A DNA stretch of 47,008 bases from a virus (IMGVR_UViG_3300045747_000694:106165-153172), one strand, 5' to 3'; shown: positions 8,607 to 44,083, numbered from the stretch's first letter. Translations and numbers: made by a program. The notes: generated by a model not told the origin, from the sequence alone.

Positions 8607-9464
8607 ATGATCGAGGTCTCGGACACAAGTCCGGACCTGGACTGGGTCCTGGGGAAGCTCGCGGCCGCCAAGAAGGCGCCTCCAGCTTCCCCTGCGGCTT
8701 CTCCAGAGCAGAAGAAGCTGGATCTCCGGGCGAAGCAGCCGAAGGAGCTCGAGCTCTGGAAGGCGTGGAAGGATGGCGGCCAGAAGCCCCACCTCCTCGA
8801 GCCCCTGCTGAAGTCCTTCGCCCCGCTCATCAACTCGCGCATCAACCTCTACAAGAGGGCGGAGATCCCCACCGCGGCGCTCGAGCAGGAACACCACAAG
8901 TGGTTCCTGAAGGGGCTTCAGACCTTCGACCCCTCCAAGGGCGCGGCGCTCAACACGCACCTCACCACCAACCTGAAGAAGGCCGGGCGGTGGATCGAGG
9001 CCAACAAGAACTTCGCGTACATCCCCGAGAACGTCTCGCGCAACATCGGCGCCTACAAGAACTTCAAGGGCGAGCTGGCGGACCGGCTGGGCTACGAGCC
9101 GGACGACAAGACCATCCTCGACTTCGCCATCAAGGAGAAGCACCCGAAGCTGGGTGTGCTCTCCTTGAAGGACATCAAGCGCATCAACACGGACCAGCGC
9201 AAGGGCCTCATCGAGAAGGGGCACGAAGACGACCTCCTCTCCAACAGCGGGATCGACCCGCGCGAGGTCGAGGTGGCTCACCTCATCATCCCGCAGCTCA
9301 CCCCGCAGGAGCGGCTGGTTCATGAGCACACGCTGGGGCTGAACGGGAAGGCGCAGCTCAAGCCGGGCGACATCGCCAAGAAGCTGAAGATGGACAACTC
9401 CAAGGTGGCGAAGCTGCGCTCCGCGATCTGGAACAAGATGAAGCCGTACCTGGGCGAGTCATGA
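8607..9464 (+). CDS. Sigma-70 family RNA polymerase sigma factor (phage-encoded; regions 2 and 4 recognisable)
   Basis: Region-2-like segment ELELWKAWKDGG...LLEPLLKSFAPLINSRINLYKR. C-terminal region-4 helix-turn-helix LTPQERLVHEHTLGLNGKAQLKPGDIAKKLKMDNSKVAKLRSAIWNKMKPYL. Confidence 0.8.
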   Translation: MIEVSDTSPDLDWVLGKLAAAKKAPPASPAASPEQKKLDLRAKQPKELELWKAWKDGGQKPHLLEPLLKSFAPLINSRINLYKRAEIPTAALEQEHHKWFLKGLQTFDPSKGAALNTHLTTNLKKAGRWIEANKNFAYIPENVSRNIGAYKNFKGELADRLGYEPDDKTILDFAIKEKHPKLGVLSLKDIKRINTDQRKGLIEKGHEDDLLSNSGIDPREVEVAHLIIPQLTPQERLVHEHTLGLNGKAQLKPGDIAKKLKMDNSKVAKLRSAIWNKMKPYLGES

Positions 9465-10567: not shown

Positions 10568-13500
10568 GTGGCTCTCCGCATCCCGAAGTTCATCCAGGAC
10601 CTGCTCAACGTCCCCACCGGGGCGCCGAACCACTACCTGCGATGGGACCCGCTGGCCAAGGAGATCATCAACGACCCTGGCCTCGGGGGCGGCGGCATCG
10701 GACCAGAGGGTCCCGCAGGTGCGACCGGTCCGCAGGGCGTTCCTGGCGTCACCGGTCCTCAAGGCCCGCAGGGACCAACGGGAGCCGTCGGTGCTACCGG
10801 CGCCGGCGTCACCGGCCCTCTCGGCCCGCAGGGTGCGACGGGCGCTCAAGGCGTCATCGGTCCGACGGGGGCACGGGGTCAGACTGGTGCCCAAGGTGAT
10901 GTCGGTCCCATCGGGCCGACTGGCGCTCAGGGTCCTCAAGGGGACCAGGGTGCGACCGGCCCTGTCGGCGCTGACGGCCCGCAGGGAGTGACTGGTGCGA
11001 CCGGTCCCGTTGGTCCTCAAGGCCAGACGGGGGCCGCCATCACGGGAGCTCAGGGTCTGCCCGGCGCGACAGGTCCGACCGGAGCAACGGGGGCGCGCGG
11101 CGCCACCGGCGTGACTGGGTCGGTCGGTCCGCAGGGGCCGACCGGAGCCGCCATCACTGGGGCGCAGGGGCCACAGGGAGTCACCGGTCCGACTGGCCCG
11201 ACCGGTGCCGTGGGCCCGCAAGGGCCGACTGGCGCCGCCATCACCGGGGCGGCCGGGCCGCAAGGGGTGACGGGCGCCACCGGTCCCACGGGGCCGCAGG
11301 GCCCCACCGGCGCGGCCATCACCGGAGCGACTGGCGTCACCGGCGCCCGCGGCGCCACGGGCGTGACCGGAGCCACTGGCCCAGCTGGTGCCACGGGTGC
11401 GACCGGCCCGGCCGGGCCGCAGGGTGTCACTGGCGCCACCGGGCCTACCGGCGCCGTCGGTCCGCAGGGGTCGACTGGCGCGGCCATCACGGGAGCACAA
11501 GGACCGCAGGGAGCCACCGGCGTGCCGGGCGTCACCGGCGCCACCGGGCCGATGGGCCCGGGCAGCCCCTCCGCCGGACCGACGGGAGCGCAGGGCGCCA
11601 CCGGCCCAGCTGGGCCGCAGGGCGTGACGGGTGCCACTGGCCCGACGGGGCCGAAGGGCGACACGGGAGCGGCCATCACCGGGGCAGCTGGCGTGACCGG
11701 CGTCACGGGCCCTGCCGGCCCGCAAGGCGTCACGGGGGCCACGGGCCCCACTGGCGCTCGCGGCGCGACCGGCGTCGACGGCGTCACGGGAGTGACTGGC
11801 CCAACGGGGGCTCGAGGTGCGACCGGCGTCGATGGGGTGACGGGCGCTACCGGGCCGACGGGTGCTCGCGGCGTCACGGGGGCGACCGGCCCAACAGGTG
11901 CTCCAGGCGTCCAGGGCGTCACGGGGGCGACCGGGCCGACCGGGGCGCAGGGAATCCAGGGGGTGACTGGGGCCACCGGTCCTACGGGCTCTCAGGGCCC
12001 TCAGGGGGTCACTGGCTCGACGGGTCCGACCGGGGCACCTGGCCCGCAGGGCGCGACCGGGCCAACTGGCCCGACAGGTGCGGTCGGTCCCCAGGGACCC
12101 ACGGGTGCCGCCATCACCGGAGCTGTGGGTCCGACGGGACCGGCCGGGCCAACCGGGCCGAAGGGTGACACCGGCGCCGCCATCACCGGCGCGCAGGGCG
12201 CCACCGGCGTTCAGGGGGTCCAGGGAGCCACGGGGCCCACCGGGCCCGCCGGCACGCAAGGGGTCACCGGCGCGACCGGGCCCACCGGGCCCGCCGGAGC
12301 TCAGGGTGCTACCGGTGCGACTGGGCCAGTTGGTCCGCAAGGTCCGACGGGTGCCGCGATCACGGGCGCCACCGGGCCGCAGGGGCCGCAAGGCAACCCC
12401 GGCGTCACGGGGCTCACCGGTGCGACAGGGCCGCAGGGATCGCAGGGCCCCACGGGAGCTCTCGGCCCCACCGGTCCTGCCGGTTCACAGGGAGTGACTG
12501 GCGCTACTGGTCCGACCGGAGCGCAGGGTCTTCAGGGCGCCACCGGGGCGACAGGTCCGACTGGGCCAGCGGGAGCGCAGGGGGTCACTGGCGCAACCGG
12601 CCCGACGGGCCCAGCTGGCGCGCAAGGGGTCACTGGTGCTACGGGGCCGACGGGACCGCAGGGCGTGCAGGGACCGACGGGCTCGGCCATCACCGGCGCA
12701 ACGGGGCCGGCTGGCCCGCAGGGACCGACAGGCACGCAGGGCATCACCGGGGCCACGGGACCGACCGGCCCTCAGGGCACGCAAGGCGTGACCGGGGCGA
12801 CCGGCCCGACCGGGCCGGCAGGCGCGCAGGGAGTCACCGGAGCTACTGGCCCGACTGGTCCCGCTGGTACGCAGGGCGTGACTGGGTTCACGGGCCCCGT
12901 CGGTCCTCAGGGTCCGACGGGAGCGGCTATCACTGGCGCTACCGGCCCTGTTGGTCCTCAGGGCCCGACCGGAGCGCAGGGCATCACCGGCGTCACCGGT
13001 GTCACCGGACCCACAGGTGCTCAGGGGCCTGCGGGCCCGACAGGGGCACAGGGGGTCACCGGGCTCACTGGGCCTGTCGGCCCGCAGGGGCCGACAGGTG
13101 CTGCCATCACGGGAGCCACCGGGCCCACCGGAGCGATCGGGCCTCAGGGTGTGACGGGGGCAACCGGGCCAACGGGCCCCGCGGGCGCAACCGGCGCAAC
13201 CGGCGTGACCGGCGCGCGAGGCGCGACAGGCATCACCGGAGCTACCGGACCCACGGGGCCTGCCGGTCCTCAAGGAGTGACCGGAGCCACCGGCCCTACC
13301 GGCCCGGGCGGCCCCACCGGCTCAGTCGGACCGCAGGGCGTCACCGGGGCAACGGGGCCCACCGGTCCGGCTGGTGCCGACGGTGCGACTGGCCCTGCTG
13401 GTGCCGGTCTCGATGGCGCCACTGGACCTATCGGTCCGGCCGGCGCTACTGGGGCGACCGGGCCAGCTGGTCCTCAGGGTGTCACGGGAGCAACGGGACC

Positions 13501-14371
13501 AACCGGGCCCGCCGGAGCAACCGGTGCGACCGGCGTGACGGGAGCTCGAGGCGCGACCGGGGTCACGGGAGCCACTGGCCCGCAGGGCTCTCCTGGCCCA
13601 ACGGGCGCCGCGATCACGGGAGCCATCGGACCGCAAGGCGTGACTGGCTGGACTGGCCCTGTCGGGCCGCAGGGTCCCACCGGAGCAGCCATCACTGGTG
13701 CAACCGGTCCTGCTGGTCCGACAGGTGCGACTGGCGCGATTGGGCCGACCGGTCCTGCCGGCAGCGGCGCAGTGAAGACGCTGAACCAGGCCTACTGGGA
13801 CGGCGGTACCGGCCCCGGCGGCGTGGGCGGAGAGATCGACCTCAACGCCACCATCGGACCGGTACGCCTCATCGGCTCCGGTGCGGCATCCGGCGGCGTC
13901 TACTTCCAGGTGGCAGACGCCGCCGGCGGCCTGCCTCTCTTCGAGGTGCGCGAGGGCGGTGGCCGCGGCGTCATCATGATCCCGCGCATCGAGCTCGGCG
14001 GCACGCCCCTCACCCCGGCCAACTTCTCGCTCTCTCGTTGGGGCTCGGGTGCGTCTTCCCCCGGCAACTACGGCGTGACGGGAGTCTCCTGCTCCGACGC
14101 CGGCGGGTCGTTCACCGTCGTCGCGGGGCAGACGGGGTACTCGCCAGCGCCCCAGATCACCATCAACTTCAAGGATGGTCCTCGAGCGGGCAACCCCTTC
14201 GTCCTCGCTCGCGTGATGAACCCGTGCATCCCTACGAACGCGAGCCTCTGGGGCTACAGCGTCATCAACCCGGTGCTCATCACCCAGAGCCCGACCTTCA
14301 TCACGATGATGATCCCGGGCTCCCCCACGAACCGCTGCTCCATCACCATCCAGTTCGTCTCCTTCGCATAA
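10568..14371 (+). CDS. Collagen-like fibre protein (1267 aa): about 1060 aa of Thr-rich Gly-X-Y repeats plus a roughly 200-aa beta-rich C-terminal globular domain (BclA-like architecture)
   Basis: Continuous G-P/A/V-T/Q triplets ([13 protein letters not shown]...). A recurrent GAAITGA interruption occurs about 14 times. Non-collagenous C-terminus begins around [18 protein letters not shown] start with an AGAGG RBS. Confidence 0.9.
10700..13760 (+). repeat. Triplet (9/18-nt) coding tandem repeats encoding the Gly-X-Y collagen-like region
   Basis: Reiterated GGN-CCN/GCN/GTN-ACN/CAG units. They create spurious long ORFs in all six frames. Confidence 0.85.
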
Positions 14372-14416
14372 CAAGGTGTGGCATCCATCGTCTGTACTTA
14401 GTAGCATGCCGACCTC

Positions 14417-15073
14417 ATGGAGCTCCGCTCGTCATCCTTCCGCGGGAAGGACTTCAAGTTCCAATGCGATCCCGAGGATCACTCCTCGCATTGGACCTTT
14501 GAAGACGAGAGGGGCGTTCGAGACGAGCTCTGGGACGTCCACGAGGGCGACATCATCCTCGACGTAGGAGCTGCTTTCGGTTCCTATGCGCTCTCCGCCC
14601 TGGCCGTCGGCGCTTCCTTCGTGCACTCCTGGAGCATGGAGACGCACCATCAGATCATGATGGAAGAGTCGCTCAAGGCGAACAGGTGGGAGAAGCGGTG
14701 CACCGTCAACCGCTTCGGTCTCTTCCACCGCCCAGGCTGGTACCGCTGGCAGGACCGCAGGTTCTCGGAGACTCCCGAAGAAGGCTTCGTGGTGGTCGAC
14801 TCCATCGACCACATGATGGAGGACCCAGAGCTCTTCCCCTACGGTCCTCGCTACTTCATCAAGATCGACACCGAGGGGGCCGAGCCGGAGATCCTCAAGG
14901 GGGCCGAGAAGTTCCTCGAAGTCCACCGCCCCAACATCTTGGTGGAGAACCACGACTTCCTTCGTCCACACGCCACCTCTTTGGTGCGCGAGTACCTCGC
15001 AGAGCAGGGGTTCGAGCTGAGCGTCGACCGCCCCTCCGCCATGTGTTCCCACTCTCTGTACCTCCCAGACTAA
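14417..15073 (+). CDS. FkbM-family SAM-dependent methyltransferase
   Basis: Motifs ILDVGAAFGSYAL (SAM-binding G-loop) and YFIKIDTEGAEPEILKGAEKFL, typical of the FkbM methyltransferase domain. Confidence 0.75.
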   Translation: MELRSSSFRGKDFKFQCDPEDHSSHWTFEDERGVRDELWDVHEGDIILDVGAAFGSYALSALAVGASFVHSWSMETHHQIMMEESLKANRWEKRCTVNRFGLFHRPGWYRWQDRRFSETPEEGFVVVDSIDHMMEDPELFPYGPRYFIKIDTEGAEPEILKGAEKFLEVHRPNILVENHDFLRPHATSLVREYLAEQGFELSVDRPSAMCSHSLYLPD

Positions 15074-15100
15074 CTGCCCGCACTTGATCGGAAGGGCTAC

Positions 15101-18100
15101 ATGACCGTCTCGCTTTGCATGATCGTGCGCGACGTCGAAGAGCACCTCGACGCCTGCCTGGCCTCGGTGGAGAAGTACGTCGACGAGATCGTCATCGTCG
15201 ATACCGGGTCGGTGGATGGGACGAAGGCTGTGGCGCTGCGGCACGGTGCCAAGATCTTCGACTTCAGCCCGGAGACCAACCCCGAAGCCTTCCTGCTCGA
15301 CGATGAGAAGACGATGGCTCCTCCTCCCTACACGGGGAAGTGGATCCTCGCCGACTTCGCCGGCGCGAGGAACCTCTCGTTCGACAAGGCGACCAGCGAC
15401 TTCGTCTTCTGGATCGACTCCGATGATGTCGTGGTGGGTGCCGAGAACATCCCCTCCATCCTGAAGGAGCTCGAGGGGATGCAGATGGGATGTGCCTGGT
15501 TCCGCTACGACTACGCCTTCTCTCCCGACGGGCAGCCTACCTGCCAGCTCTGGCGAGAGCGGATCATGCGGAAGGGCGCGGGAAGGTGGACGAACCCCAT
15601 CCACGAGGTCTGCATCCCCACGCAGGGGTCCGTCAGCAAGAACTACGACTTCGTCGTCATCAAGCACCAGAGGGACGACAACAAGACGCCCGCGGTGGCA
15701 CACCGCAACTACAAGGTGCTGAAGAGGCAGTACGAGAAGGAGAAGGGCGCCAAGAACTTCGACGCCAGGACGCTCTTCTACCTGGGCAACGAGTCGAAGT
15801 TCATGAACGCCGACGAGGCCATCGGCTACTTCGAGCAGTACCTGCGCCTCTCGGGATGGGACGAGGAGCGCGCTGTGGCGCGGATCCTCATGGGCCAGCT
15901 GTTCGAGGTGAAGGGCGACATCGAGGGGGCCTTCCGCGCCTACTCTTCCGCGACCTACGACTACCCCTTCAACCCCGATCCGTACTTCGCCCTCGCCCGT
16001 CTCGCCTACAAGAAGGACGACTGGAGGAAGTGCATCGACTTCACCGAGCACGGGCTGTCCAAGGGGAACCCGCACTCGGCCATCATGTACAACCCCCTCG
16101 ACCGGAACTACTACCCGCACACCTACTACAACGTCGCCCTCAACAACGTGGGCCGGGTGGCTGATGCGGCGAAGTCCTGCGAGGAAGGCCTCAAGTCCGT
16201 TCCGGAAGACACCAACCTCAAGTTCAACAAGCATCTCTACGACGACTACCTGAAGAGGAACCCGCAGCCGGAGAAGCAGGCGACCGCGCAGTCGATCACC
16301 TTCGACGGCGCCTCCATCGACTCTCCGCCCAACCTGCCTTCCGGTGTCGTCGCGACGCTGGGTCTCCAGATCTGGAAGGAGCTGCTTCGCTACGACGAGG
16401 TGGTGAAGGCGCGGACCTTCCTCGAGTCCCTTCCCTATGTCACCGAGGGGAGCGAGGGACTCGAGAAGGCGAAGAAGCTCACCGACGAGATCCTCGAGTT
16501 CGCCACCTCGCCAACCAAGATGCAGGCGCAGTACAACGACTGGCATCACGTCGACGAGGCCATCCCCTTCACGGCACAGGTGCCGAAGCACTGGTCTCAG
16601 TACCCGCGCTTCAGCTCGGTCATGGCGTTCTTCGAGGGGAAGTCGAAGCTGCGGGTCCTCGACATCGGCTGCCAGGACGGCTGGATCTCGAACCGTGTCG
16701 CGCGTCTCGGCCATTCGGTGGTGGGTCTCGACTTCAGCCAGGCCTACCTCGAGATCGCCAAGAGGAACGCCCGGTGCGAAGGGCTCGATGCCACCTACAT
16801 CCTCGGCTTCATCGAGGAGCTCTCCAAGGCGGTCCCTGAGAAGTACGACGTCGTCATCTGCACGGAGGTCATCGAGCACTCCGCGGACCCGGACAAGCTC
16901 ATCAGGGACATCAAGCGTGTGCTGAAGCCGGGCGGGACGCTTCTGCTCTCGACGCCGAAGGGGCACTGGTTCCAGGGGCAGGCGCATGAGTTCGCTTCGG
17001 CATGGAACGCGCCTCGTCAGCACATCCAGGCCTTCACCGTGAAGTCGCTCTCCAAGGTCCTGGGGAACCATCTCCACGTCACCTCCTGCTACGAGATGCC
17101 GGTCCCCACGCCGGACGTCCCTGGGCAGGGCACTCTCTTCGCCGAGGCGGTCTTCGAGATCACCCTCGAGAAGGGCGGGCAGGACATCGTCTTCTACACG
17201 GGGCCAGCGTGGGAGTGGTGGAACGCCAACAGCCCCTACCGAGAGGGGACGGGAGGCTCCGAGCTGGCCTGTGTGGAGATGGCGAAGTCCTTCGCGAGGA
17301 TGGGGCACAGGGTCAGGGTCTACAGCGACTGCCCGGGGATGGAGGGCATCTACGACGAGGTCGAGTACCTGCACTTCTCCCACGCGCAGCCTGGGACCAT
17401 CACCTGCGACGTCTTCATCAGCTCGAGGCAGCCCACTGTTCTCCCGGCGCTCCAGCTCACCGCCAAGGCGCGGATCCTCTGGGTGCACGACATCCACGTG
17501 GGCGCCCCAGGATCGCAGCTGCATGAGGCCCTGCTCCACTACGACAGGATCTTCTGCCTCTCCAAGTGGCATCGCGACTACTTCCTCAGCGTCTACCCCT
17601 TCCTCGACCCGGAGAAGGTGGTCGTCTCGAGGAACGGCATCCTCATCGAGCGCTTCCCCTGTGCCGAGCACGCCAAGGAGAACAAGCTCATCTACACCTC
17701 CTCTGGCAACCGCGGCCTCGAGCTGCTGCTCGACCTCTTCCCCCGCATCAGGGAGAAGGTCCCTGACGTCGAGCTCGAGGTCTACTACGGCTTCAACGTG
17801 TGGAAGTCGGCGGCCAGGAACAGCCCCGACGAGATGGCTCAGATCGAGCGCATCGAGCAGAAGATGAAGAACACTCCCGGCGTCATCACGATGGGCCGGG
17901 AGAACCAGCAGGGGCTTGCCAAGGCCTGGCTTCAGGCCAAGGTCTGGGCCTACCCGACCTGGTTCACCGAGACCTACTGCATCTCGGCCCTCGAGGCACA
18001 GGCTGCCGGCGCCGTCCCCGTGACCACGAACCTCGCAGCCCTCGGGGAGACCGTGCAGTCCGGCTTCCTCCTCAGTCCTCCTCTCAACGAGGAGTACAAC

Positions 18101-18286
18101 AAGGACTTCGTGGACTCGGTGGTGGAGCTGCTCACGGACGAGGAGGAGCGGCAGAAGCACGTCAAGATCGGAAGAGAGGCGGCCGAGAAGCTCACGTGGA
18201 GCAGCTTGGCCCTCGACTGGCGCAAGCAGTTCGATGAGGTGATCGAGGCGGTGAAGGTGAACCCCATCCACAGGTATATGCCATGA
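15101..18286 (+). CDS. Trifunctional glycosylation enzyme: N-terminal GT2 glycosyltransferase, TPR-like linker, class I SAM methyltransferase, C-terminal GT4 (GT-B) glycosyltransferase
   Basis: GT2 signature: IVRDVEEHLDACLASV...IVIVDTGSVDGT and a DSDD (DxD) motif. Methyltransferase motif I VLDIGCQDGWIS and ...VLKPGGTLLLSTP. GT4-like C-terminus: GGSELACVEMAKSFARMGHRV and EAQAAGAVPVTTN. Confidence 0.85.
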   Translation: MTVSLCMIVRDVEEHLDACLASVEKYVDEIVIVDTGSVDGTKAVALRHGAKIFDFSPETNPEAFLLDDEKTMAPPPYTGKWILADFAGARNLSFDKATSDFVFWIDSDDVVVGAENIPSILKELEGMQMGCAWFRYDYAFSPDGQPTCQLWRERIMRKGAGRWTNPIHEVCIPTQGSVSKNYDFVVIKHQRDDNKTPAVAHRNYKVLKRQYEKEKGAKNFDARTLFYLGNESKFMNADEAIGYFEQYLRLSGWDEERAVARILMGQLFEVKGDIEGAFRAYSSATYDYPFNPDPYFALARLAYKKDDWRKCIDFTEHGLSKGNPHSAIMYNPLDRNYYPHTYYNVALNNVGRVADAAKSCEEGLKSVPEDTNLKFNKHLYDDYLKRNPQPEKQATAQSITFDGASIDSPPNLPSGVVATLGLQIWKELLRYDEVVKARTFLESLPYVTEGSEGLEKAKKLTDEILEFATSPTKMQAQYNDWHHVDEAIPFTAQVPKHWSQYPRFSSVMAFFEGKSKLRVLDIGCQDGWISNRVARLGHSVVGLDFSQAYLEIAKRNARCEGLDATYILGFIEELSKAVPEKYDVVICTEVIEHSADPDKLIRDIKRVLKPGGTLLLSTPKGHWFQGQAHEFASAWNAPRQHIQAFTVKSLSKVLGNHLHVTSCYEMPVPTPDVPGQGTLFAEAVFEITLEKGGQDIVFYTGPAWEWWNANSPYREGTGGSELACVEMAKSFARMGHRVRVYSDCPGMEGIYDEVEYLHFSHAQPGTITCDVFISSRQPTVLPALQLTAKARILWVHDIHVGAPGSQLHEALLHYDRIFCLSKWHRDYFLSVYPFLDPEKVVVSRNGILIERFPCAEHAKENKLIYTSSGNRGLELLLDLFPRIREKVPDVELEVYYGFNVWKSAARNSPDEMAQIERIEQKMKNTPGVITMGRENQQGLAKAWLQAKVWAYPTWFTETYCISALEAQAAGAVPVTTNLAALGETVQSGFLLSPPLNEEYNKDFVDSVVELLTDEEERQKHVKIGREAAEKLTWSSLALDWRKQFDEVIEAVKVNPIHRYMP

Positions 18287-19425
18287 AGTTCGCCCTCATC
18301 TACGGTCGCTTCTGCTCCGCCGCCCGAGGCCCCTACAAGGCCCACGACATCGCCAGCCACGGCCTGACTGGCTCGGAGAGCTTCTACTTCAACACGGTGA
18401 AGGCGCTCTCCGAGGCTGGGCACACCGTCGACGCCTTCGGGTGGTGGGAGAAGGAGCACGTGGACGGCCTCGTCCACTACTACCCCTTCACCAAGAACGG
18501 GGACGACATGCACGTCCCCGATCCCGCGTCCTACGACGTGGCCATCGCATGGAGCGAGCCGGACTACCTTCGCGTCTTCCCCCCGACCGTTCTTCGGATC
18601 TGCGAGCAGCAGCTCAACGACTTCCCCTACGCCGGCGAGGGCTTCGAGAAGAGCGTCGATCTCTTCCTGTTCCCCTCCGACACCCACCGGAAGCACATCC
18701 TCTCCGTCACCCCCTGCATCGACCCGGCGAAGACGGACGTCTGGGGCAACTGCATCAGCAACGAGGACTACTTCACGGGGGAAGAGAAGGCTCGCGGGAA
18801 GAGCATCACCTACTGCTCCTCTCCGGACCGGGGACTGCACTGGCTCTGCGAGCTCTTCCCCCGGGTGAGGGCGAAAGTTCCCGAAGCCACCCTGCACGTG
18901 TACTATCGCTTCATGCCGTGGTACCAGCAGATGGCTGGTGAGTGGAACCCCGGCAACCCGGCCGCGCACCAGCAGGGCATGCGGGCCAGGTACGCGGGGT
19001 CGTTCTTCTACAAGATGGGAGCGATGGGAGAGAGCGGGGTCTTCTTGCACGGGGCAGTCACCAACCAGCAGATGGTCGCTGCCCTGGAGAGCTCTCGAGT
19101 CCTCGCGTATCCCTGTGACCCCGTCGTCTTCACCGAGGGCTTCGGGGTTTCCGTCCTCGATGCCTGCGCTGCTGGCGCCATCCCCATCATCAGCGACGTC
19201 GACGCGTTTGGAGAGGTCTACGGCGGCACGGCCATGGTCATCCCGGGACGGCCTGGCGACCACCGGGACGAGTGGGTCGCTGCGATGGTGAAGGCCCTCA
19301 CCGATGACGACCTCCAGAAGGAAGTCACCACCAGGTGCAGGGCCTTCTCGAAGAAGTTCACGAGGAAGGCCAGGGTGAAGCAGCTGCTCAAGATCATCTC
19401 CTCCCTGAAGAAGGCTGCCGCATGA
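18283..19425 (+). CDS. GT4-family (GT-B fold) glycosyltransferase
   Basis: ATGA overlap with the upstream gene. GT4-like segment VLAYPCDPVVFTEGFGVSVLDACAAGAIPIISDVDAFGEV. Confidence 0.75.
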   Translation: MKFALIYGRFCSAARGPYKAHDIASHGLTGSESFYFNTVKALSEAGHTVDAFGWWEKEHVDGLVHYYPFTKNGDDMHVPDPASYDVAIAWSEPDYLRVFPPTVLRICEQQLNDFPYAGEGFEKSVDLFLFPSDTHRKHILSVTPCIDPAKTDVWGNCISNEDYFTGEEKARGKSITYCSSPDRGLHWLCELFPRVRAKVPEATLHVYYRFMPWYQQMAGEWNPGNPAAHQQGMRARYAGSFFYKMGAMGESGVFLHGAVTNQQMVAALESSRVLAYPCDPVVFTEGFGVSVLDACAAGAIPIISDVDAFGEVYGGTAMVIPGRPGDHRDEWVAAMVKALTDDDLQKEVTTRCRAFSKKFTRKARVKQLLKIISSLKKAAA

Positions 19426-20909
19426 AGGGCGCTCTCGTCATCCCACCCTCCGCCTTCCTGCTCGACGCGAGGGTCTTCGTCAGTCTGGGCATCCTGAAGG
19501 TCGCCGCGGCGCTCGAGGCGAGAGGGGTCATGGTGGACGTCATCGACCTCTCCGGGGTCGCCAACTACAAGGACGCCCTCAGCGACTACCTCCACAACTC
19601 TCGGCCGGAGTGGGTCGGCATCACGGCGACGACTCCGCAGATGCCCTACGTCACGGAGCTCTCCCGGCTGGTCCGCTCTCACGGGGCCAAGGCCATCCTG
19701 GGCGGCCCGCACCCCACCCTCACCAACGCGGCCTACAAGAACGAGAAGAAGCTCCACCGTTCTGGCCGTGGGGGCAAGGCTTGGGAGCAGCTCCTCGAGG
19801 AGTTCGATGTCGTCGTGACCGGGGATGGGGAGAAGGCCATCTTCGAGGCCATCGACAAGAGCTGCGGCCACGTCGATGCCGACGATCCGAGAAGCGAGCT
19901 GTGGGTCTCCGAGAAGGAGATGATGGACCTCCAGCCGGCCCGCCACCTGGTCGACCTCTCCAGCTACCACTACTCCATCGACGGGGAACGGGCGACGAGC
20001 CTCATCGGCCAGCTGGGCTGTCCCTTCCAGTGCGCCTTCTGTGGCGGCCGCGCCTCTCCGATGCTGCGGCGCTCGAGGGTGCGGACGGTGCCGGACATCA
20101 TCGCCGAGGTGGCCCACCTGCATGACCGGCACGGCTACAAGGGCTTCATGTTCTACGACGACGAGCTCAACGTCGCGAAGAGCATGCCAGCCCTCATGGA
20201 CGCCATCCACCTCCTGGCCGTGAGCCGCAAGACGGAGTTCCGCCTGAGGGGCTTCATCAAGGCCGAGCTCTTCACCGACGAGCAGGCAGCCTCCATGGTG
20301 AGGGCCGGGTTCAAGTGGATCCTGGTGGGCTTCGAGTCGGGGTCGCCGAGGATCCTGGAGAACATCCGGAAGCAGGCCACCGTCGAGGACAACACCCGCT
20401 GCCTCGAGATCGCCAGGCGCCACGGGCTGAAGGTGAAGGCCCTGATGTCCATCGGCCACGCTGGCGAGTCGGCCGAGACCATCGCCGAGACGCAGGCCTG
20501 GCTCCTCAAGATGATGGTGGACGACTTCGACGCCACCATCATCACCACCTACCCCGGCACGCCCTACTACGACGAGGCCTACGAGTCGTCGGCAGGCATC
20601 TGGACCTACCAGGCCAAGGGCGGGGACAAGCTGCACGCCTACGCTCTCGACTACTCGAAGGTCTCCGACTACTACAAGGGCGACCCCAACGCCGGCTACA
20701 AGGCGTACGTCTTCACCGACCACCTCTCTTCCGAGGACCTTGTAGGTCTTCGTGGGCAATTGGAGCAGAAGGTAAGGACGGAGCTTTCTATTCCCTTCTA
20801 CCCAGGCGCGCCTGCGGTACAGTACGAACATTCCATGGGGATGGCCGGGCTTCCCGACACCATCCTACGGTCCTCGCACTTCGCGACCGCGCAAGGAGTG
20901 GGGACATGA
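19422..20909 (+). CDS. B12-binding-domain radical SAM enzyme
   Basis: N-terminal Rossmann-like B12-binding region (KGALVIPP...LGILKVAAALEARGVMVDVIDL). Radical SAM CxxxCxxC motif (GCPFQCAFCGG). Start chosen at the ATGA overlap with the upstream stop rather than the longer in-gene track start. Confidence 0.8.
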   Translation: MKGALVIPPSAFLLDARVFVSLGILKVAAALEARGVMVDVIDLSGVANYKDALSDYLHNSRPEWVGITATTPQMPYVTELSRLVRSHGAKAILGGPHPTLTNAAYKNEKKLHRSGRGGKAWEQLLEEFDVVVTGDGEKAIFEAIDKSCGHVDADDPRSELWVSEKEMMDLQPARHLVDLSSYHYSIDGERATSLIGQLGCPFQCAFCGGRASPMLRRSRVRTVPDIIAEVAHLHDRHGYKGFMFYDDELNVAKSMPALMDAIHLLAVSRKTEFRLRGFIKAELFTDEQAASMVRAGFKWILVGFESGSPRILENIRKQATVEDNTRCLEIARRHGLKVKALMSIGHAGESAETIAETQAWLLKMMVDDFDATIITTYPGTPYYDEAYESSAGIWTYQAKGGDKLHAYALDYSKVSDYYKGDPNAGYKAYVFTDHLSSEDLVGLRGQLEQKVRTELSIPFYPGAPAVQYEHSMGMAGLPDTILRSSHFATAQGVGT

Positions 20910-22111
20910 TCGCAACCATCCGAGACGCGAAGGGCCTGGGCAACTTCGCCGTCTACATTCGTTTCCGCAACGACATCACGAACTACTGGAACTTCGTGAC
21001 GCAGGCGTGGGAGGCGCTGGAGACCTCCGACTGCCGGCAGTTCCTCACCGAGTACCCGGACTCCAGCACCGTCGAGTCCCGCTACCAGCTCGAGCTCGCC
21101 AGCAACGTCATCCCGCCCGGCACCTTCATCGTCGAGTACGTTCACAGCTCGGACGAGATGGTCATCGGCGAAGAGACCTTCGCCGGCCCGCCGCCGCCCA
21201 TCTCCGGCACCGGGGCGAACCTCGTCACGGTCACGGTGACCGACGGTTCCGTCCCCATCGCCGGCGCCTTGGTGCAGGCCTGGCAGGCGGGGGTGCTCCT
21301 CGCCGCGGTGCTGTCCGACACCCAGGGAGTCGCGGCACTCGGTCTGCCTGCCGGCACCATCAACCTCGTCGTCACGAAGACGAGCTGGGGCTCCTTCCCG
21401 CAGCACACGATGACGGTGGTGGCTGGCCCGCAGGCAGTGGCCATCCAGGGGACGGCGACGCCGCCTGGCGCCCTTCCCCCGAGCGGCTTCGGGATCCTCA
21501 TCGCGGTGGGCGACGCGGACGCCAAGCTCCAGATGGGCTACTCCGTCATCGAGGTGCAGTCCTCGGACGATGAGGGCAACTCGTGGCAGGCCCTCACCGC
21601 GCCAGTCGCTGCCCCGCCGATTCAGGTCCACATCCCCCTGATGCCGGCGACCTACGCCTACTCCTTCCTCGACCCCCAGGGGACCTCGAAGCGTCGCTAC
21701 CGCTGGCGCTTCTCGGCCAACGGCGTGGCCCCGATCTCCCCCTTCGTGAAGTGGGTCTTCGGCACGCAGCGCGTCTCCACCGTCCCCATCTCCGTGGGGA
21801 CGATGCGTTTCGTTGGGCTGGACGGCATCATTCGTCCAGGCACCCTGCTGGCGGCCGCGCTGGATGCCTCTTCCGGCGGCTCGGTGTTCGTCGGAGTCAT
21901 GCTCGCCTACAACACCGACGAGTCCGGCTTCCTCGCCATCCCTCTCGTGCAGGGGTCGAAGGTGAGAGTTGCCATCGAGGGCACCAGCATCGTGAGGGAC
22001 ATCACCGTCCCCACCACCGAGACCTTCGACATCATGCAAGCCATCACCGCCGCGCCTGACATGTTCACGGTCCAGACGGTGCCTCCGATGCTCACGAAGA
22101 GGGCTCTCTAA
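20906..22111 (+). CDS. Structural protein (401 aa) with a carboxypeptidase-regulatory-like (transthyretin-like beta-sandwich) domain
   Basis: AAGGAG RBS. ATGA overlap with the rSAM gene. Segment GANLVTVTVTDGSVPIAGALVQAWQAGVLLAAVLSDTQGVAALGLPAGTINLVV. The track's longer 20315 start lies inside the upstream gene. Confidence 0.7.
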   Translation: MIATIRDAKGLGNFAVYIRFRNDITNYWNFVTQAWEALETSDCRQFLTEYPDSSTVESRYQLELASNVIPPGTFIVEYVHSSDEMVIGEETFAGPPPPISGTGANLVTVTVTDGSVPIAGALVQAWQAGVLLAAVLSDTQGVAALGLPAGTINLVVTKTSWGSFPQHTMTVVAGPQAVAIQGTATPPGALPPSGFGILIAVGDADAKLQMGYSVIEVQSSDDEGNSWQALTAPVAAPPIQVHIPLMPATYAYSFLDPQGTSKRRYRWRFSANGVAPISPFVKWVFGTQRVSTVPISVGTMRFVGLDGIIRPGTLLAAALDASSGGSVFVGVMLAYNTDESGFLAIPLVQGSKVRVAIEGTSIVRDITVPTTETFDIMQAITAAPDMFTVQTVPPMLTKRAL

Positions 22112-23016
22112 TGTCGACAGTGAACATCCTGGTGACGTCGGACGGGACCACTCCCTCACCCATCGCTGGTGCCGTCGTCTCCATCGTGGACCCCGCCACG
22201 AACCTGGCGCTCGTGGCCCGCGCGACCACCAACTCCTCGGGCATCGCTGGCTTCGACATCCCGGATGGCGTCTACGAGCTCCGTCTCTACAAGCGGAACG
22301 TCGTCTTCGGCGGGCCCGTGGCCATCACCGTCCTCGGCAACGGGGCGTACACGGTGACCGGCACGCTGATGCTCCTGCCGGTGGCGACCGACCCCCTGCT
22401 CTGCCGCTGCACGGGCCGCTTCGTCGGCTTCTCGGGACAGCCCCTCGCCAACGTCACGCTCGTCTTCACGCAGCGGGGTGACACCGAGAACATCGTCCCT
22501 CGGGTGTTCGACTCGCAGCTCGTGGGGCAGTCCGACCTCATCGCGCACACCAACACGGAGGGCTTCATCACCCTCGACCTCATCCGCACCGGAGAGTTCA
22601 AGCTCTCCATCTCCGGTGAGGAGCTGGTCTGGGACTTCAGGGTCCCCGACCGTTCTTCCGCAAACCTCATCGACCTTCTGCATCCTCAGCCGGTGTCTCT
22701 GACGTGGGATCCCACCTTGGCACCGGCGAATGCCATCACGGTGCAGGTGGGGCAGACCATCACGGTCCCGGTGTCCCTCGTACTGTCGAACTACGAGGTC
22801 CTCAACAACGGAGCTACCGAGCTATGGCTGGCGTATCTGAACTCAGACTCGATCATCGCCCCCGCGGCAATCGGGGACGCCGGAATGGAAGTGACGGGCG
22901 GGGCCGTCGGAACGGCGCAGATCTCCGCGTCTGCACGCCAGGGGTTCTACCCGCGAAGGGTGCCCGACCCGCCGGTGCTGGTCACGACCCCGCTGACCAT
23001 CAACGTTACACCCTGA
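22111..23016 (+). CDS. Structural protein (301 aa) with an N-terminal CarboxypepD_reg-like domain
   Basis: TAATG overlap. ILVTSDGTTPSPIAGAVVSIVDPATNLALVARATTNSSGIAGFDIPDGVYELRLYKRN. Confidence 0.7.
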   Translation: MSTVNILVTSDGTTPSPIAGAVVSIVDPATNLALVARATTNSSGIAGFDIPDGVYELRLYKRNVVFGGPVAITVLGNGAYTVTGTLMLLPVATDPLLCRCTGRFVGFSGQPLANVTLVFTQRGDTENIVPRVFDSQLVGQSDLIAHTNTEGFITLDLIRTGEFKLSISGEELVWDFRVPDRSSANLIDLLHPQPVSLTWDPTLAPANAITVQVGQTITVPVSLVLSNYEVLNNGATELWLAYLNSDSIIAPAAIGDAGMEVTGGAVGTAQISASARQGFYPRRVPDPPVLVTTPLTINVTP

Positions 23017-23156
23017 CCAACTTCGTCTTCGGGCTCATCGAGAGGGGGAAGCTCTACCCCTCGACGGAGCGCCACGCCGGCATCAGGACCCTCTGGGTGA
23101 AGGTCGTCATCCGGGCGGTCTTCGATTGGGTCTCCTATCGGGACTCGACGAAGCTC

Positions 23157-23402
23157 ATGCAGCTCAAGCTGGCGGAGAGTGCTCACGCCTGGCTCTTCAA
23201 GGAGAGCGAGGTCTTCAACAGCTTCGAGAACGTGTGCTTCTACCTCGACATGTCTCCGTCGAACATCCGCAACTGGGCCAAGGCCCTCTCCCGCGACCAG
23301 GTGCTGAAGATCGAACTGGCCGACCGCGCCCCTTCCCCGAAGCAGGTGTACGAGGCGCTCAACTTGAAGTACCTCGTTAACGAGGAAGACCTCGAGACCT
23401 GA
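23157..23402 (+). CDS. Small hypothetical protein; start uncertain (frame 0 is open and coding-like from about 23004; alternative GTG at 23097)
   Basis: Non-repetitive sequence FKESEVFNSFENVCFYLDMSPSNIRNWAKALSRDQVLKIELADRAPSPKQVYEALNLKYLVNEEDLET. Ends in a TGATG overlap with the next gene. No convincing RBS. Confidence 0.3.
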   Translation: MQLKLAESAHAWLFKESEVFNSFENVCFYLDMSPSNIRNWAKALSRDQVLKIELADRAPSPKQVYEALNLKYLVNEEDLET

Positions 23403-26477: not shown

Positions 26478-29400
26478 ATGGCACAGGCCGAACTGAAGAC
26501 CTTCGTAGAGGACCGCCTTCAGGCGCTGGTCCCAGGCATCGACGTCTCGGCCGGGTCTCCCGCGCAGACGACCTTCGTCGATCCGCTGATGCAGTACCTC
26601 GGGACCGACCCCTTCGAGACGGACATCGACAAGTTCCTCTCGGACCGCTTCCGCCAGGAGTACCCCGACATCTACGCCGGCGACCCGAGCGCCATCCGCG
26701 ACCTCTTCGTGAAGCCGCTCATCACCTTCCTCGAGCCCATCAAGCGGGAGATCCTGACCGTCCGCAGGAACCAGTCGTTGCAGGACCCGGCGCTCCTCTC
26801 GGACGACGATGCCGATGCGCTGGTGGCCAACTTCTACGACCAGCGTGCGCAGGGCGCCCTCGCCGGCGGCACGGTCCGGGCCTACTACTCCAACCCCGCC
26901 AACGTCCCCATCGAGACCACGGTCCGCTTCTCCACGGCCGGCGGTCTCGCGTTCTTCCCTACGGCCCCCACCTCCATCACGGCGGAGGAGATGGTCTTCA
27001 ATCGGGACGGGACGCTCTACTACGCCGACATCCCGGTGAAGGCGGAGAAGGAGGGGGCCGCCTACAACGTTGGGGTCGGGACCATCGTCAACGTCGATGG
27101 CCTCTTCGGCATCGTGAAGGTCTCGAACCTCCAGGTCTTCCAGAGCGGGGCCGACAAGATCTCCACCGATGCCTTCGTCTCCCAGTCGCGCGAGGCACTG
27201 AACGAGCGGTCGCTGCTCAACCGCCGCGGCGCCGTGCCCCGGCTGCGGGATGCCTTCCCGGGCCAGCTGCGCGCCGTGCAGGTCATCGGGGCTCAGGACA
27301 AGGAGATGGAGCGCGACATCCTGGTGGGCCACACCAAGGGCCACACCTGGCTCACTGGCCGCGTCACCCTCTACGAGAGCATGGCCCTCGTGCAGGCTCG
27401 CACGGTCGATGATGGCGCCGAGTCGGCCCCCGTCGCCGGGGACACGCTCTACGTCTACCTCGACAAGACGACCTGGCCGTCCGGGATCTTGCAGAAGGAC
27501 AGGTTCGTGGAGCTCACCGTGGAGGAGACGATCCTCGACGGCATCGGCGGATCTGGGGCCTTCCAGTGCAGCTTCCTGGTGAGGTGGTCTGGCTCCCTCC
27601 CGACGGGCATCCTCGCTCCCCTGTCGGTGGAGGGGGGCTGCACGAGGAAGGGGACGATCTCCATCACCTCGATCCCAGGCATCGGAGCCCTCACGGCCGA
27701 TGTCCCGGACCAGTCGGTGCACATCTACGGGCACACCGACATCTACGTTCGCCCCACGGCCGACGTGGTGTCGAAGTCGGTGCTGTCTCCCGTCGTCGAC
27801 GCCTCCCCGGTCATGGAGTACACGACGCTCTCCACGGCGGCCACGGTGCCCACCAACTCGGTGCTGGACTCGGTGGGCCGAGACTTCGCGGTGGCCGGCG
27901 TCCTCCCCGGGGACGTCCTCTACATCGAGTCGAGTGACGCCGCGGGCACCTACACCATCGCCGACGTCACGGGGTCGGGTTCCGGATCGCGGCTCCTCCT
28001 CGCCACCAACATCGAGAGAGCGGCGACGAACGCCAGGTACCGGATCTCCCGTACCGTGAAGGTCGACCTCTTCAGCCCCAAGATCCCCAAGCTCCCCTTC
28101 TCCAACCTGCCGGCGGACGACCTCACCACGCAGATCGGGTCGCTGCTCTTCTCCTTCTCCACGAACACCGTCGACTACGGCGTCCGCATCGGGGACACGG
28201 TCCGCGTCACCTCGGGTCCGGACGTCGGGGACTTCACGATCACCGGCTTCGACGGCGTCCTCGGGGGCCGTGGGGTTCTCGTGGACCGTCGGGCCACGGC
28301 ATCCGTGGCCGGGGTCAAGTACGAGATCTTCACGCTCCTGGAGCCGGTGCAGAAGCCCCTCATCCGCCTCAAGGAGGTCATGCTCCTCGACTCCTCCAAG
28401 AAGGCCACGGGGGTCACGGTGCCTCCGGCGCTTCCGGTAGCGGTGCGGTCCCTGAGCGACTTCACCTCGGCCAGCGCCAAGGGGCGCAGCTACCAGAACG
28501 GCGGCATCGTCCTCCCGAAGCTCGACACGCTCTTCACCACGACGAACGTGCCCGCCATCAACGGGGACATGCGCTACTCGACGGGGAGTGAGCCGGCCGA
28601 CGGGGGCTCCTACAAGGCGTTCGAGCTCAACTACTCCGGGCATGTGGAGGGAGAGATCCTCGTCCCCTCCTCGGCCTACTCGGAGTGCTCCTGGTTCCTC
28701 GCCCTGGTGGAGGACGTCGATGCCGTCAGCGGGAAGCCGCCGGTGGTCTTCGAGGTTGGCGGAGTGCTCAACCTCTTGAGCGGGCCGAACAAGGGCGGCT
28801 ACCTCATCCGCGAGGTGAAGAAGGTCAGGTACTACCCGATCGCCACGCCGACCGTCCCCTACTGGCTCACCTTCGTCCGGATCCATGGGACGTTCCCGGT
28901 CGACACCTTCCGCTCGGTGATCGACTTCATCGCAGCCAACCCTGTGCCCATCACCGGCTTCCCCGGCATCCCGACACTGCGTGCCGAGATCGACGGGACT
29001 CCCGTGCTCGAGACGTGGTTCGGCGACTTCTGGGCCAACCTCCCGACCTGGGTGAACGGCTCCATCGGCCTGCTTGGCGGGTCCCCTCCCAGCACGACAG
29101 TGGCAGCCATCGACACGCTCCTGGCGACGGACTACGAGGTGGGCACTCCTGCGCGGGGCATCCTCCGCTCCTACTTCCAGCAGCCTACCCTCTTCACGCA
29201 GAACACCGCCGGGTCCCCGACCCCCACCGTCTACGACTTCAAGGCCGTCACGGGGGACATCCTCTCCTTCCGCCCGGACCCCTTCCGCTACGAGGAGCAG
29301 AACATCCTCCCGGCGCGCGAGGTCTCGGACGTCGACGTGTTCAGCTCCCCTCGAGACGTGCTGCCGTCGGTTCCGACGGCAGCCTCTGGGACGTCGGCCG

Positions 29401-37851: not shown

Positions 37852-38489
37852 GCATGAACATCAGCGATGCAGTTCGAGTCAGCGACGCCGGCCTTGTCCG
37901 GGCCGGCACCACTGAGCGCAGCTGGGGCTCCGAGAGGAGCGTCGTCGAGGTGAAGGGCTGGGTGAAGCTGGTCCTGCGAGAGCGGGGCAAGAAGGTCACC
38001 GAGCGCGAGGGGCACAACGTCTGGACCAACACCGGGCGCGAGTTCCTGACCCAGCGCATCAGCCTCGACCTCGCCTCTCCCTCGAGCACCCTTCGGACGG
38101 ACGCGGTCGCCTTCGTCGGAGCCGGCATCGGGGCGAGCACGGAGGAGCCGGGGGTCCTGGCCTTGCAGGACCCGGTGGCCTACGACACCTCGCTCTTCCT
38201 CGCCGAGATCACGGGGGTGTCCTTCCCGGCCTACCCGGTCCGCACCACGGTCGAGTACCAGCGGACCTTCGCCGAGTCCGAGATCACCATCATCCCCGGC
38301 ACCGTCCTCATCTCGGAGCTCGGGCTCTTCACGAACGGCGACCCTGCCGGCACGCCCGCCAACGGCTTCGGCACCAGGAGCCGGGCCCTCAGCAGCTTCA
38401 CGGCGGCCCCCGTGGCGTACAAGAGCTTCGAGCCCGTGGCCAAGACCGAGAACATGCAGCTCGAAGTCTTCTGGCAGATCCGCTTCTAG
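37848..38489 (+). CDS. Tail-associated protein (213 aa); alternative start ATG 37854
   Basis: ATGA overlap with the upstream stop. The AGGAGA RBS is better spaced for ATG 37854. Confidence 0.6.
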   Translation: MSMNISDAVRVSDAGLVRAGTTERSWGSERSVVEVKGWVKLVLRERGKKVTEREGHNVWTNTGREFLTQRISLDLASPSSTLRTDAVAFVGAGIGASTEEPGVLALQDPVAYDTSLFLAEITGVSFPAYPVRTTVEYQRTFAESEITIIPGTVLISELGLFTNGDPAGTPANGFGTRSRALSSFTAAPVAYKSFEPVAKTENMQLEVFWQIRF

Positions 38490-43606: not shown

Positions 43607-44083
43607 ATGCTGAAGCTCGCCAAGGTCAGACCGCACCAGCAAGAGACGCAGCGGACCTGCTCTGCGGCCTGCCTTCGTGCTGTGCTGTTGCACCATGGCA
43701 AGGACGTACCCGAGAGCCTGCTGTCGAAGGCCATCGGGGTAGGGCACTACGGGGCCGAGCTCTACCAGATCGTGGGAGCGGCAAGGGCGTTGGGGTTCAC
43801 AGCGAAGCAAGTCGAGTTCAAGAGCTTGTCAGACGCCTTCGAGCTCCTCGAGAAGGACGTCCCGCTCATCTGCGATGTGCAGAGCTGGACGAAGAAGGGT
43901 AGTGGGCACTACGTCGTTCTCGTGAACGAGAGCGGTGGCCGGGTCAACATCATGGACCCGAACGTCTCAGGCAACTGGCGCACGATGTCCTCGAAGGACT
44001 TCGACAAGCGCTGGTGGGACGGAGACAACGTCTACAGGGGTCGCGTACTTCGTCGACCTTCTGTCATCGTTCGACCGAGGTAG
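43607..44083 (+). CDS. Peptidase C39-like (papain-fold) cysteine peptidase; candidate endolysin/peptidoglycan peptidase
   Basis: Catalytic-type motifs Q-x5-C (QQETQRTCSAACLRAVLLHHG), GHYVVL (His) and DPN...W, as in the C39-like peptidase family. Adjacent to holin/spanin-like genes. Confidence 0.65.
   Translation: MLKLAKVRPHQQETQRTCSAACLRAVLLHHGKDVPESLLSKAIGVGHYGAELYQIVGAARALGFTAKQVEFKSLSDAFELLEKDVPLICDVQSWTKKGSGHYVVLVNESGGRVNIMDPNVSGNWRTMSSKDFDKRWWDGDNVYRGRVLRRPSVIVRPR

Follow-up and report, generated by a model that had tools for sequence, protein, structure and literature searches.

In this study, we analysed a 47,008-nt stretch of viral DNA (IMGVR_UViG_3300045747_000694:106165-153172; hereafter the window) that encodes a collagen-like protein of 1267 amino acids, here called the fibre, followed by a cassette of four genes for an FkbM-family methyltransferase, a fused glycosyltransferase (GT)-methyltransferase, a second GT and a B12-binding radical S-adenosylmethionine (SAM) enzyme. 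Judged from sequence comparison, these genes would form a self-contained phage O-glycosylation module for a collagen-like virion fibre, a reading to which we give a probability of roughly two in three. The strongest evidence tying the enzymes to the fibre is the frequency with which relatives of the fused enzyme are encoded near collagen-like genes, both in phages and in bacteria. Positions below are those of the window, and genes lie on the + strand unless stated otherwise.

The central enzyme of the cassette (15101..18286) is a protein of 1061 amino acids in which four domains are joined: a GT2/GT-A domain (about 15101-15700; PF00535, 6.5e-13), a tetratricopeptide repeat (TPR) domain (about 15758-16150; weak Pfam matches to TPR_14 and TPR_2, 0.002), a class I SAM methyltransferase domain (16619-17065; 3e-22) and a GT4/GT-B domain (17252-18238; Glyco_transf_4 2.5e-7, Glycos_transf_1 8.6e-11). 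Catalytic motifs are intact in the GT2 (DSDD), methyltransferase (VLDIGCQDG) and GT4 (EX7E) domains; DSDD occupies residues 106-109, and D34, D39, D106, D108 and D109 are invariant in an alignment of 30 GT2-TPR sequences. Residues 224-349 align with designed TPR proteins in the PDB (down to 5.9e-8), and homologues of the enzyme give strong TPR matches in Pfam. The best solved-structure match of the N-terminal GT domain is GmaR of Listeria (E 2e-14), while the peptide S-glycosyltransferase SunS is a weak PDB match of the GT2-TPR part (1.3e-3) and is also among its NCBIfam matches.

Scanning IMG/VR with the alignment of 30 GT2-TPR sequences revealed more than 535 relatives in viral stretches, and we retrieved the best 80 loci, each with 10 kb on either side. 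In all sets, an open reading frame (ORF) was called collagen-like when it held 12 or more Gly-X-Y triplets in runs of six or more. Such ORFs were found at 31 of 79 viral GT2-TPR loci, a set that leaves out the window's close relative (51 ORFs in 1.32 Mb examined), and at 54 of 80 bacterial GT2-TPR loci (78 ORFs in 1.33 Mb), whereas 120 random viral loci, drawn with an arbitrary 14-mer as the control, had none (0 ORFs in 0.98 Mb). Fisher tests against this control put the linkage far above chance, with p = 4.6e-15 at viral and p = 2.6e-29 at bacterial loci. Among the 22 viral loci nearest to the window's enzyme, 17 carried a collagen-like ORF. The viral collagen-like ORFs were nearly all on the strand of the GT gene; at 25 of the 80 viral loci one lay upstream of the enzyme, with its end less than 1.5 kb away in 15, and several more began within about 1 kb downstream. 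Their Y position was dominated by Thr (24-71%) and Gln. The best 80 bacterial loci came almost entirely from Bacillota, including Paenibacillus, Bacillus, Brevibacillus, Cohnella and many Clostridia; there the collagen-like ORFs mostly adjoined the enzyme gene and Thr typically made up 50-95% of the Y residues. These linkage counts indicate that the GT2-TPR family is a conserved genomic partner of Gly-X-Thr collagen-like proteins in phages and spore-formers. The pairing of collagen-like and GT genes that the first-pass annotation had pointed out in the window thus recurs in distant phages and in Bacillota.

The bacterial homologues, which share 25-36% identity with the window's GT2-TPR module, are about 360-375 amino acids long (median ORF 374) and so of the size of SgtA of Clostridioides difficile. 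SgtA (358 amino acids) has a GT-A domain at residues 1-260 and four TPRs at residues 262-358; its gene lies immediately upstream of bclA3, and in vitro the enzyme adds beta-O-GlcNAc (N-acetylglucosamine) to Thr of BclA3 collagen-repeat peptides (PMC7157674). The window resembles this system in the order of GT-A and TPR domains and in the position of the gene beside a collagen-like gene with Thr-bearing repeats, and it is SgtA-sized homologues of its GT2-TPR module that flank Gly-X-Thr ORFs at the 54 bacterial loci. Unlike SgtA, the window's enzyme is phage-borne and fused to a methyltransferase and a GT-B domain, and the cassette adds a second GT-B enzyme, an FkbM methyltransferase and a B12-radical SAM enzyme. 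GmaR, a cytoplasmic flagellin O-GlcNAc transferase (PMC9638930), likewise has a GT domain followed by TPRs and is itself a case of cytoplasmic protein Ser/Thr O-glycosylation, but it differs in its flagellin target and its anti-repressor domain. The match to GmaR had led us to consider flagellin as a conserved substrate; this candidate was rejected when blastp with Hag of B. subtilis as the query found no flagellin-like ORF near the 80 bacterial and 80 viral homologues.

The fibre gene (10568..14371) is an uninterrupted ORF whose product matches the Pfam family Collagen (E = 2.4e-122) and no other family over its entire length. By direct count, residues 42-1067 (10691-13768) form a Gly-X-Thr/Gln collagen-like region of 337 Gly-X-Y triplets, the most frequent being GAT (63), GPT (55), GVT (40) and GPQ (37), which bears out the first-pass description of a long collagen-like protein with GPT, GAT and GVT triplets. 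Its statement that Thr dominates both X and Y holds for Y, where Thr occurs 172 times (51%), ahead of Gln (68) and Ala (40), but fails for X, which is led by Pro (133), Ala (118) and Val (51). Fourteen identical two-residue insertions (G-A-A-I-T-G type) break the helix between residues 155 and 1044. The same interruption motif was found again in both close relatives of the window (L004, L007), and it may mark kinks or recognition sites in the fibre.

Outside the repeats, the N-terminal segment (residues 1-41; 10568-10690) has no Pfam match and is 98% identical in a phage relative (L011/L004). The last 200 or so residues (1068-1267; 13769-14368) are non-collagen and predicted to be all-beta, in agreement with the globular, beta-rich C-terminal domain originally proposed. 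This domain matched no PDB chain by sequence or profile. A word-indexed search of 5.8 billion proteins returned only five homologues and a profile search of 1.84 billion representatives returned 52 proteins; in the latter the domain was always C-terminal, and in the best matches it was preceded by Gly-X-Thr repeats. In a structural model of moderate confidence, the fold resembles lectins, pyocin fibre tips and the C-terminal domains of tailspikes, and not C1q/TNF. Within the limits set by model quality, the domain would fit the tip of a receptor-binding fibre and lends nothing to a homology with BclA.

The first-pass annotation had further assigned the protein the architecture of BclA. The central region agrees with the BclA type, being rich in Gly-Pro-Thr-type triplets, but the modelled C-terminal domain does not appear to be a C1q/TNF-like jelly-roll trimerisation domain and is unrelated in sequence to that of BclA; the N-terminus belongs to no Pfam family and shows no recognisable exosporium-targeting region, and the gene lies in a phage structural operon instead of a spore-former chromosome. 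The fibre is also about three to four times as long as a typical BclA protein. It can therefore be termed BclA-like by analogy only.

The window's closest relatives are a 198-kb viral contig from IMG/VR and a 196-kb contig from ENA. A fibre with Gly-X-Thr repeats and the same C-terminal domain of about 200 amino acids is kept in all three clade genomes, and so is the succession of fibre, fused enzyme, 380-residue GT and radical SAM enzyme. The fibres of the window and of the 198-kb relative also have their N-terminal 41 residues in common; in the third genome this part of the fibre falls outside the fetched locus. Between these conserved parts the genomes differ. In the 198-kb relative the fibre has 1533 amino acids, with a globular insert of roughly 580, and the FkbM gene is absent; in the 196-kb relative the insert is smaller, and an additional 943-residue Ser/Thr/Ala-rich non-collagen protein is encoded between fibre and FkbM. 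FkbM thus counts as accessory: the window and L007 have the gene and L003/L004 lack it, with indel sites at 14411-15076 of the window against 9962-9976 of L004, and at 2124-4955 of L007. Differences of this kind in genes and inserts suggest that the fibre and its putative glycan tailoring diversify rapidly; a pattern in which the ends are conserved, the middle varies and the tailoring genes are optional is to be expected of a receptor-facing fibre together with its decoration.

The remaining enzymes of the cassette are an FkbM-family SAM methyltransferase of 218 amino acids (14417..15073; PF05050 1.8e-11, TIGR01444), whose 657-bp gene is all that separates the fibre gene from the fused enzyme gene; a stand-alone GT1/GT4-type (GT-B) glycosyltransferase of 380 amino acids (18283..19425; Glyco_trans_1_4, PF13692, 6.8e-11); and a B12-binding radical SAM enzyme of 495 amino acids (19422..20909; PF02310 1.4e-13, PF04055 8.5e-23), for which the likely start is the ATG at 19422, in an ATGA overlap with the preceding gene, rather than the GTG at 19335. 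Pfam and NCBIfam thereby confirmed all four enzyme assignments of the first-pass annotation, including the four-domain fusion.

Comparison of the 80 viral GT2-TPR loci separated a core from accessory genes. A GT4 domain was present at 67, usually fused to GT2-TPR in a protein of 750-830 amino acids, and a second GT of the 380-residue type at 57, usually just downstream of the fused enzyme; FkbM homologues were present at 14, a class I methyltransferase at 10 and a radical SAM enzyme at seven, six of these having 53-58% identity to the window's protein. The radical SAM enzyme is, on these counts, an optional accessory outside the core of the putative fibre module. Distant phages repeat the order of fused GT, 380-residue-type GT, (FkbM) and radical SAM enzyme at about 30% identity, and the four-domain fusion with an internal methyltransferase occurs in the distant phages L016 and L026 too. 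Proteins in which GT2-TPR is fused to FkbM (P0136, P0140) and GT2 to a methyltransferase also exist, and these would tie methylation to the glycosyltransferase pathway. The 80 bacterial loci held no second GT-B, FkbM, radical SAM enzyme or methyltransferase domain, except for a methyltransferase domain at two. Given this near-absence of the extra enzymes from the bacterial loci, the elaborated cassette appears to be phage-specific.

Taking these data together, we propose that in the host cytoplasm the TPR domain would hold the fibre while the N-terminal GT-A domain of the 1061-residue enzyme moves a first sugar from a host uridine diphosphate (UDP)-sugar onto the hydroxyl of Thr at the Y position of the Gly-X-Thr repeats; by analogy with SgtA and GmaR, this sugar would be an N-acetylhexosamine. 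Further sugars would be added by the GT-B domain of the same enzyme and by the 380-residue GT-B enzyme, and FkbM and the class I methyltransferase domain of the fused enzyme would O-methylate the glycan. The B12-radical SAM enzyme might introduce a radical change into a sugar, at the level of the nucleotide sugar or of the glycan, with C-methylation the most likely. The fibre would then trimerise, be anchored on the virion by the conserved 41 residues at its N-terminus and display its lectin-like C-terminal tip. The likely gains would be a stabilised triple helix free of hydroxyproline, protection from proteases, and masking or adhesion. Collagen helices that lack hydroxyproline are stabilised by glycosylated Thr at the Y position, as reported for cuticle collagen of Riftia and for model peptides, and the glycans of BclA include methylated sugars; both facts are consistent with a stabilising and masking role.

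Several points weigh against this proposal. No collagen-like ORF lies within 10 kb at 48 of the 79 viral GT2-TPR loci, and several of these collagen-free loci place the enzyme after a series of genes that, by their sizes, are terminase-, portal-, scaffold- and capsid-like. In L007, the 943-residue non-collagen protein parts the fibre from the cassette. The place of the fibre in the virion is suggested by gene position and by a fold match of moderate confidence, and the likeness to SgtA is one of architecture, synteny and homology to SgtA-sized Bacillota proteins. In the same way, where the first-pass annotation had the fibre decorated by phage enzymes, the conserved synteny and the SgtA/GmaR-like first GT speak for the pairing, while any glycan on this phage's proteins is something we infer from comparative genomics, not from experiment; the identity and number of its sugars and the sites of methylation cannot be read from sequence. 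Finally, QCMT, the solved structure to which the radical SAM enzyme is closest, has a glutamine in a protein, and not a sugar, as its methylation target.

The collagen-free loci bear on the best-surviving alternative, which we regard as rather unlikely for the window: that the targets of the cassette are other proteins of the virion (in the capsid, tail or baseplate), instead of or besides the fibre, and that its adjacency to the fibre gene reflects placement in a late operon. In podovirus-like contigs of roughly 40 kb (L001 [MW202524], L019, L032, L034, L035 and L039), a GT2-TPR-GT4 gene follows a capsid-type series with no collagen-like ORF nearby, and in the annotated Manatee Spring phage MW202524 it stands directly after the major capsid gene. 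This arrangement hints at capsid glycosylation by the GT2-TPR family in such contigs, and since the enzyme follows capsid genes there, members of the family in other phages probably act on different virion proteins. Glycans on tailed phages have an established precedent: PMC12619734 cites Freeman 2023 for mycobacteriophage GTs that modify virion proteins, at the C-termini of capsid and tail-tube subunits, although the targets described there are not collagen repeats. In the window itself, the cassette is translationally coupled to two downstream genes for Ig-like proteins. Against these observations stand the collagen-like ORFs at most of the closest viral and of the bacterial loci, the fact that SgtA, the sole biochemically characterised enzyme with the same architecture and neighbourhood, acts on collagen-repeat Thr, and the roughly 170 Y-position Thr residues, which make the fibre by far the largest set of candidate sites.

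A separate observation concerns the Actinomycetia phage DSL-LC01 (OQ999401, 129 kb; L292 1-10077). One same-strand block of its genome encodes a giant Gly-rich protein, a 'tryptophan halogenase' and a GT2-TPR homologue and includes two genes annotated as collagen, with collagen genes less than 5 kb from the GT2-TPR homologue; UDP-galactopyranose mutase and further GT and methyltransferase genes lie elsewhere in the fetched region. This phage is a possible experimental model.

The radical SAM enzyme has the layout of class B radical SAM proteins, with an N-terminal B12-binding domain and a radical SAM core bearing the CX3CX2C motif (CPFQCAFC, residues 200-207). Its family gave 4659 matches at E<=1e-10, many at 57-61% identity, and a 25-sequence alignment across phyla (A4) has a mean column identity of 65%. 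The protein reaches none of the NCBIfam subfamily cut-offs (the best being PhpK, 94 bits against 600), its nearest solved chains, which include QCMT (9CCB, 6e-16), AprD4 (4.5e-13) and TsrM, are all distant, and it belongs to none of the characterised class B subfamilies compared (PhpK, BchE, HpnJ/R, QCMT, AprD4, TsrM and others). It appears to be a member of an uncharacterised, very conserved family of its own. Inteins are present in some members (P0038).

We surveyed the neighbourhoods of this family at loci L005-L010 and L293-L371, at least 144 IMG/VR contigs carrying a member. In large bacterial-type contigs it stands among GT1 and GT2 enzymes, methyltransferases, nucleoside diphosphate (NDP)-sugar epimerases/dehydratases, an aminotransferase, an ABC transporter and YfhO/PMT-like proteins. 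Its commonest viral neighbours are an NDP-sugar epimerase/dehydratase, a cytidylyltransferase-like protein, a cupin, a PLOD-type GT, a PfkB sugar kinase, Methyltransf_24 and GT1, GT9 and GT10 enzymes, among which the PfkB kinase, cytidylyltransferase, cupin and epimerase suggest a nucleotide-sugar pathway. The PLOD-type domain (PF25342), which is the GT domain family found in procollagen lysyl hydroxylases, neighbours the radical SAM gene at L332 (7426-8433) and at eight other loci. We had also considered the radical SAM enzyme as a collagen partner, and rejected this because collagen-like ORFs occurred at only three of 79 viral loci (GT2-TPR at four) and at none of five cellular-type loci. 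Its neighbourhoods instead tie the family to sugar and glycan pathways generally, from which it joins the fibre module in some phages. Our best guess, from these gene contexts, is that the enzyme alters a sugar by radical chemistry, C-methylation being the simplest case, and non-methylating, AprD4-like chemistry is possible. A literature search on B12-radical SAM enzymes in polysaccharide or sugar C-methylation found nothing relevant.

It is improbable, in our judgement, that the enzyme acts on the fibre polypeptide and not on a sugar, for example by C-methylating Gln or another repeat residue. QCMT, its best PDB match, does C-methylate a glutamine, in methyl-coenzyme M reductase, and Gln is second among the Y residues of the fibre; but that match is distant, the score against TIGR04014 is 70 bits where the cut-off is 360, the family occurs in sugar-nucleotide and glycan clusters with collagen-like ORFs as rare as just described, and in P0087 a member is fused to an NTP-transferase domain of the sugar-phosphate nucleotidyltransferase type.

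ATGA overlaps join the fused enzyme to the 380-residue GT, the latter to the radical SAM enzyme, and the radical SAM enzyme to a gene for a 401-residue protein with a weak prealbumin/CarboxypepD_reg-like domain (20906..22111), kept in relatives; abutting this is the gene for a 301-residue protein with weak CarboxypepD_reg and Ig-like domains (22111..23016; 89% identity in relatives). Both proteins are probably structural. The fibre gene and the five genes downstream thus form one tight, partly overlapping late block that runs into baseplate genes, and a 1487-residue protein with a baseplate J/wedge domain (26478..30941; PF04865 4e-5; PHROG 6, baseplate wedge subunit, 3.6e-14) places fibre and cassette at the head of the baseplate and tail module. 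Inside the block, promoter- or terminator-like sites did not rise above chance, and G+C equals that of the flanks, with no compositional break save a peak in the fibre gene driven by Gly, Pro and Ala. A moron-like insertion of the cassette was therefore rejected, as the cassette has neither signals of its own nor a deviating composition; the overlaps, the missing internal signals and the even composition indicate that the enzymes are expressed with the late structural proteins and are not a recent island.

This organisation also bears on the view that the enzymes remodel a glycan of the host envelope (O-antigen, capsule or wall polymer) during infection, for instance to block superinfection. 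Genome papers have read GTs in fibre regions in this way (PMC7029224, PMC10202952), such GTs being ascribed in the literature to DNA or O-antigen modification, and bacterial polysaccharide clusters typically contain GT1/GT4 enzymes and members of the radical SAM family. However, the block lacks a flippase, a polymerase, a polyprenyl-phosphate transferase and a GtrA/B-like protein, and no hydrophobic stretch long enough for a membrane helix is present in the fibre or the four enzymes. The first GT has a protein-binding TPR domain and is related to protein glycosyltransferases, phages and bacteria alike keep a collagen-like gene as its partner, and the block lies inside a late structural operon and not in an early or moron position; host-glycan remodelling is accordingly quite improbable. 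Hypermodification of the phage's own DNA (glycosylated hydroxymethyl-pyrimidines) against restriction is very improbable: DNA-decorating phage GTs are well known and diverse (10.1101/2023.12.21.572611), and the window is 47 kb of a genome of roughly 150-200 kb that may hold a 5hmC or 5hmU pathway elsewhere, but none of the five proteins matches a DNA-modification family (nor did domain searches place the enzymes in nucleotide-modification families, an objection that the first-pass annotation had itself raised), no hydroxymethylase, kinase or TET-like gene is adjacent, and a protein substrate is indicated alike by the TPR domain, by the synteny with collagen-like genes and by the place of the genes in a structural operon.

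Viral systems with partly similar chemistry offer a distant analogy to the proposed fibre glycosylation. Chlorovirus PBCV-1 A064R combines two GT domains with a sugar O-methyltransferase and, with the separate second methyltransferase A061L, helps build the methylated N-glycan of the capsid protein, while mimivirus L230 hydroxylates Lys and glucosylates the hydroxylysine of viral collagen-like proteins (PMC9614988). A064R and A061L are like the cassette in joining a multidomain GT-GT-methyltransferase to an extra methyltransferase. Nevertheless, these are systems of eukaryotic viruses in which no sequence relationship to the cassette was detected; A064R acts on an N-glycan, unlike the proposed Thr O-glycosylation, and the hydroxylysine chemistry of L230 differs as well.

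The pairing of a phage collagen-like fibre with a GT2-TPR enzyme was not found described in the searchable literature, which misses most subscription journals. A broader proposal, whose chances we see as evenly balanced, is that the window represents a widespread, unrecognised class of glycosylated phage fibres with Gly-X-Thr/Gln repeats and an SgtA-like GT2-TPR enzyme, present in hundreds of uncultured lineages, sharing ancestry with BclA glycosylation in Bacillota and expanded in phages to an autonomous pathway by additional GT-B enzymes, methyltransferases of two kinds and, in some cases, a B12-radical SAM enzyme, which would come from a large uncharacterised family making an unusual, probably C-methylated sugar. 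If this is true, tailed phages commonly make glycoprotein fibres with their own cytoplasmic O-glycosylation machinery, GTs near tail-fibre genes that are usually assigned to DNA or host O-antigen need to be read anew, and phage fibres and spore-surface glycoproteins share an origin. It would also explain the stability of hydroxyproline-free collagen triple helices of more than 1000 residues and imply that glycan coats on fibres affect host range, receptor binding and the immune recognition of therapeutic phages. The cassette would further be a compact, soluble, multi-step protein glycosylation system and would provide a genomic point of entry to a B12-radical SAM family that is highly conserved but uncharacterised.

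The window comes from a 153-kb contig, has a G+C content of about 62-69% and carries nearly all its large ORFs on the + strand. Its phage origin, as first annotated, is upheld by a sigma-factor-like protein encoded upstream of the fibre gene (8607..9464; PHROG 351, RNA polymerase sigma factor, 2.6e-8), the baseplate-J/wedge homologue, an array of 25 tRNA genes and the close relatives among viral contigs of 196-198 kb. Over positions 11044-23987 the window agrees at 100% identity with a contig assembled from another SRA run, in which the fibre ORF is continuous too. A blastn search of 14400-21000 against INPHARED phages gave no match at the DNA level, and tblastn with the baseplate protein gave none among known phages; the lineage has no closely related sequenced isolate.

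Three minor observations concern the end of the window. The 25 tRNA genes, for many amino acids, form a dense array on the - strand (44332-47010) that closes the window and is typical of large or jumbo phages; a further ARAGORN call of 97 nt at an ORF junction (37797-37893, +) is probably spurious. Just ahead of the array lies a gene for a 158-residue peptidase C39-family protein (43607-44083, +; PF03412 2.1e-18), a domain usually tied to bacteriocin-processing ABC transporters and unusual as a stand-alone phage gene.

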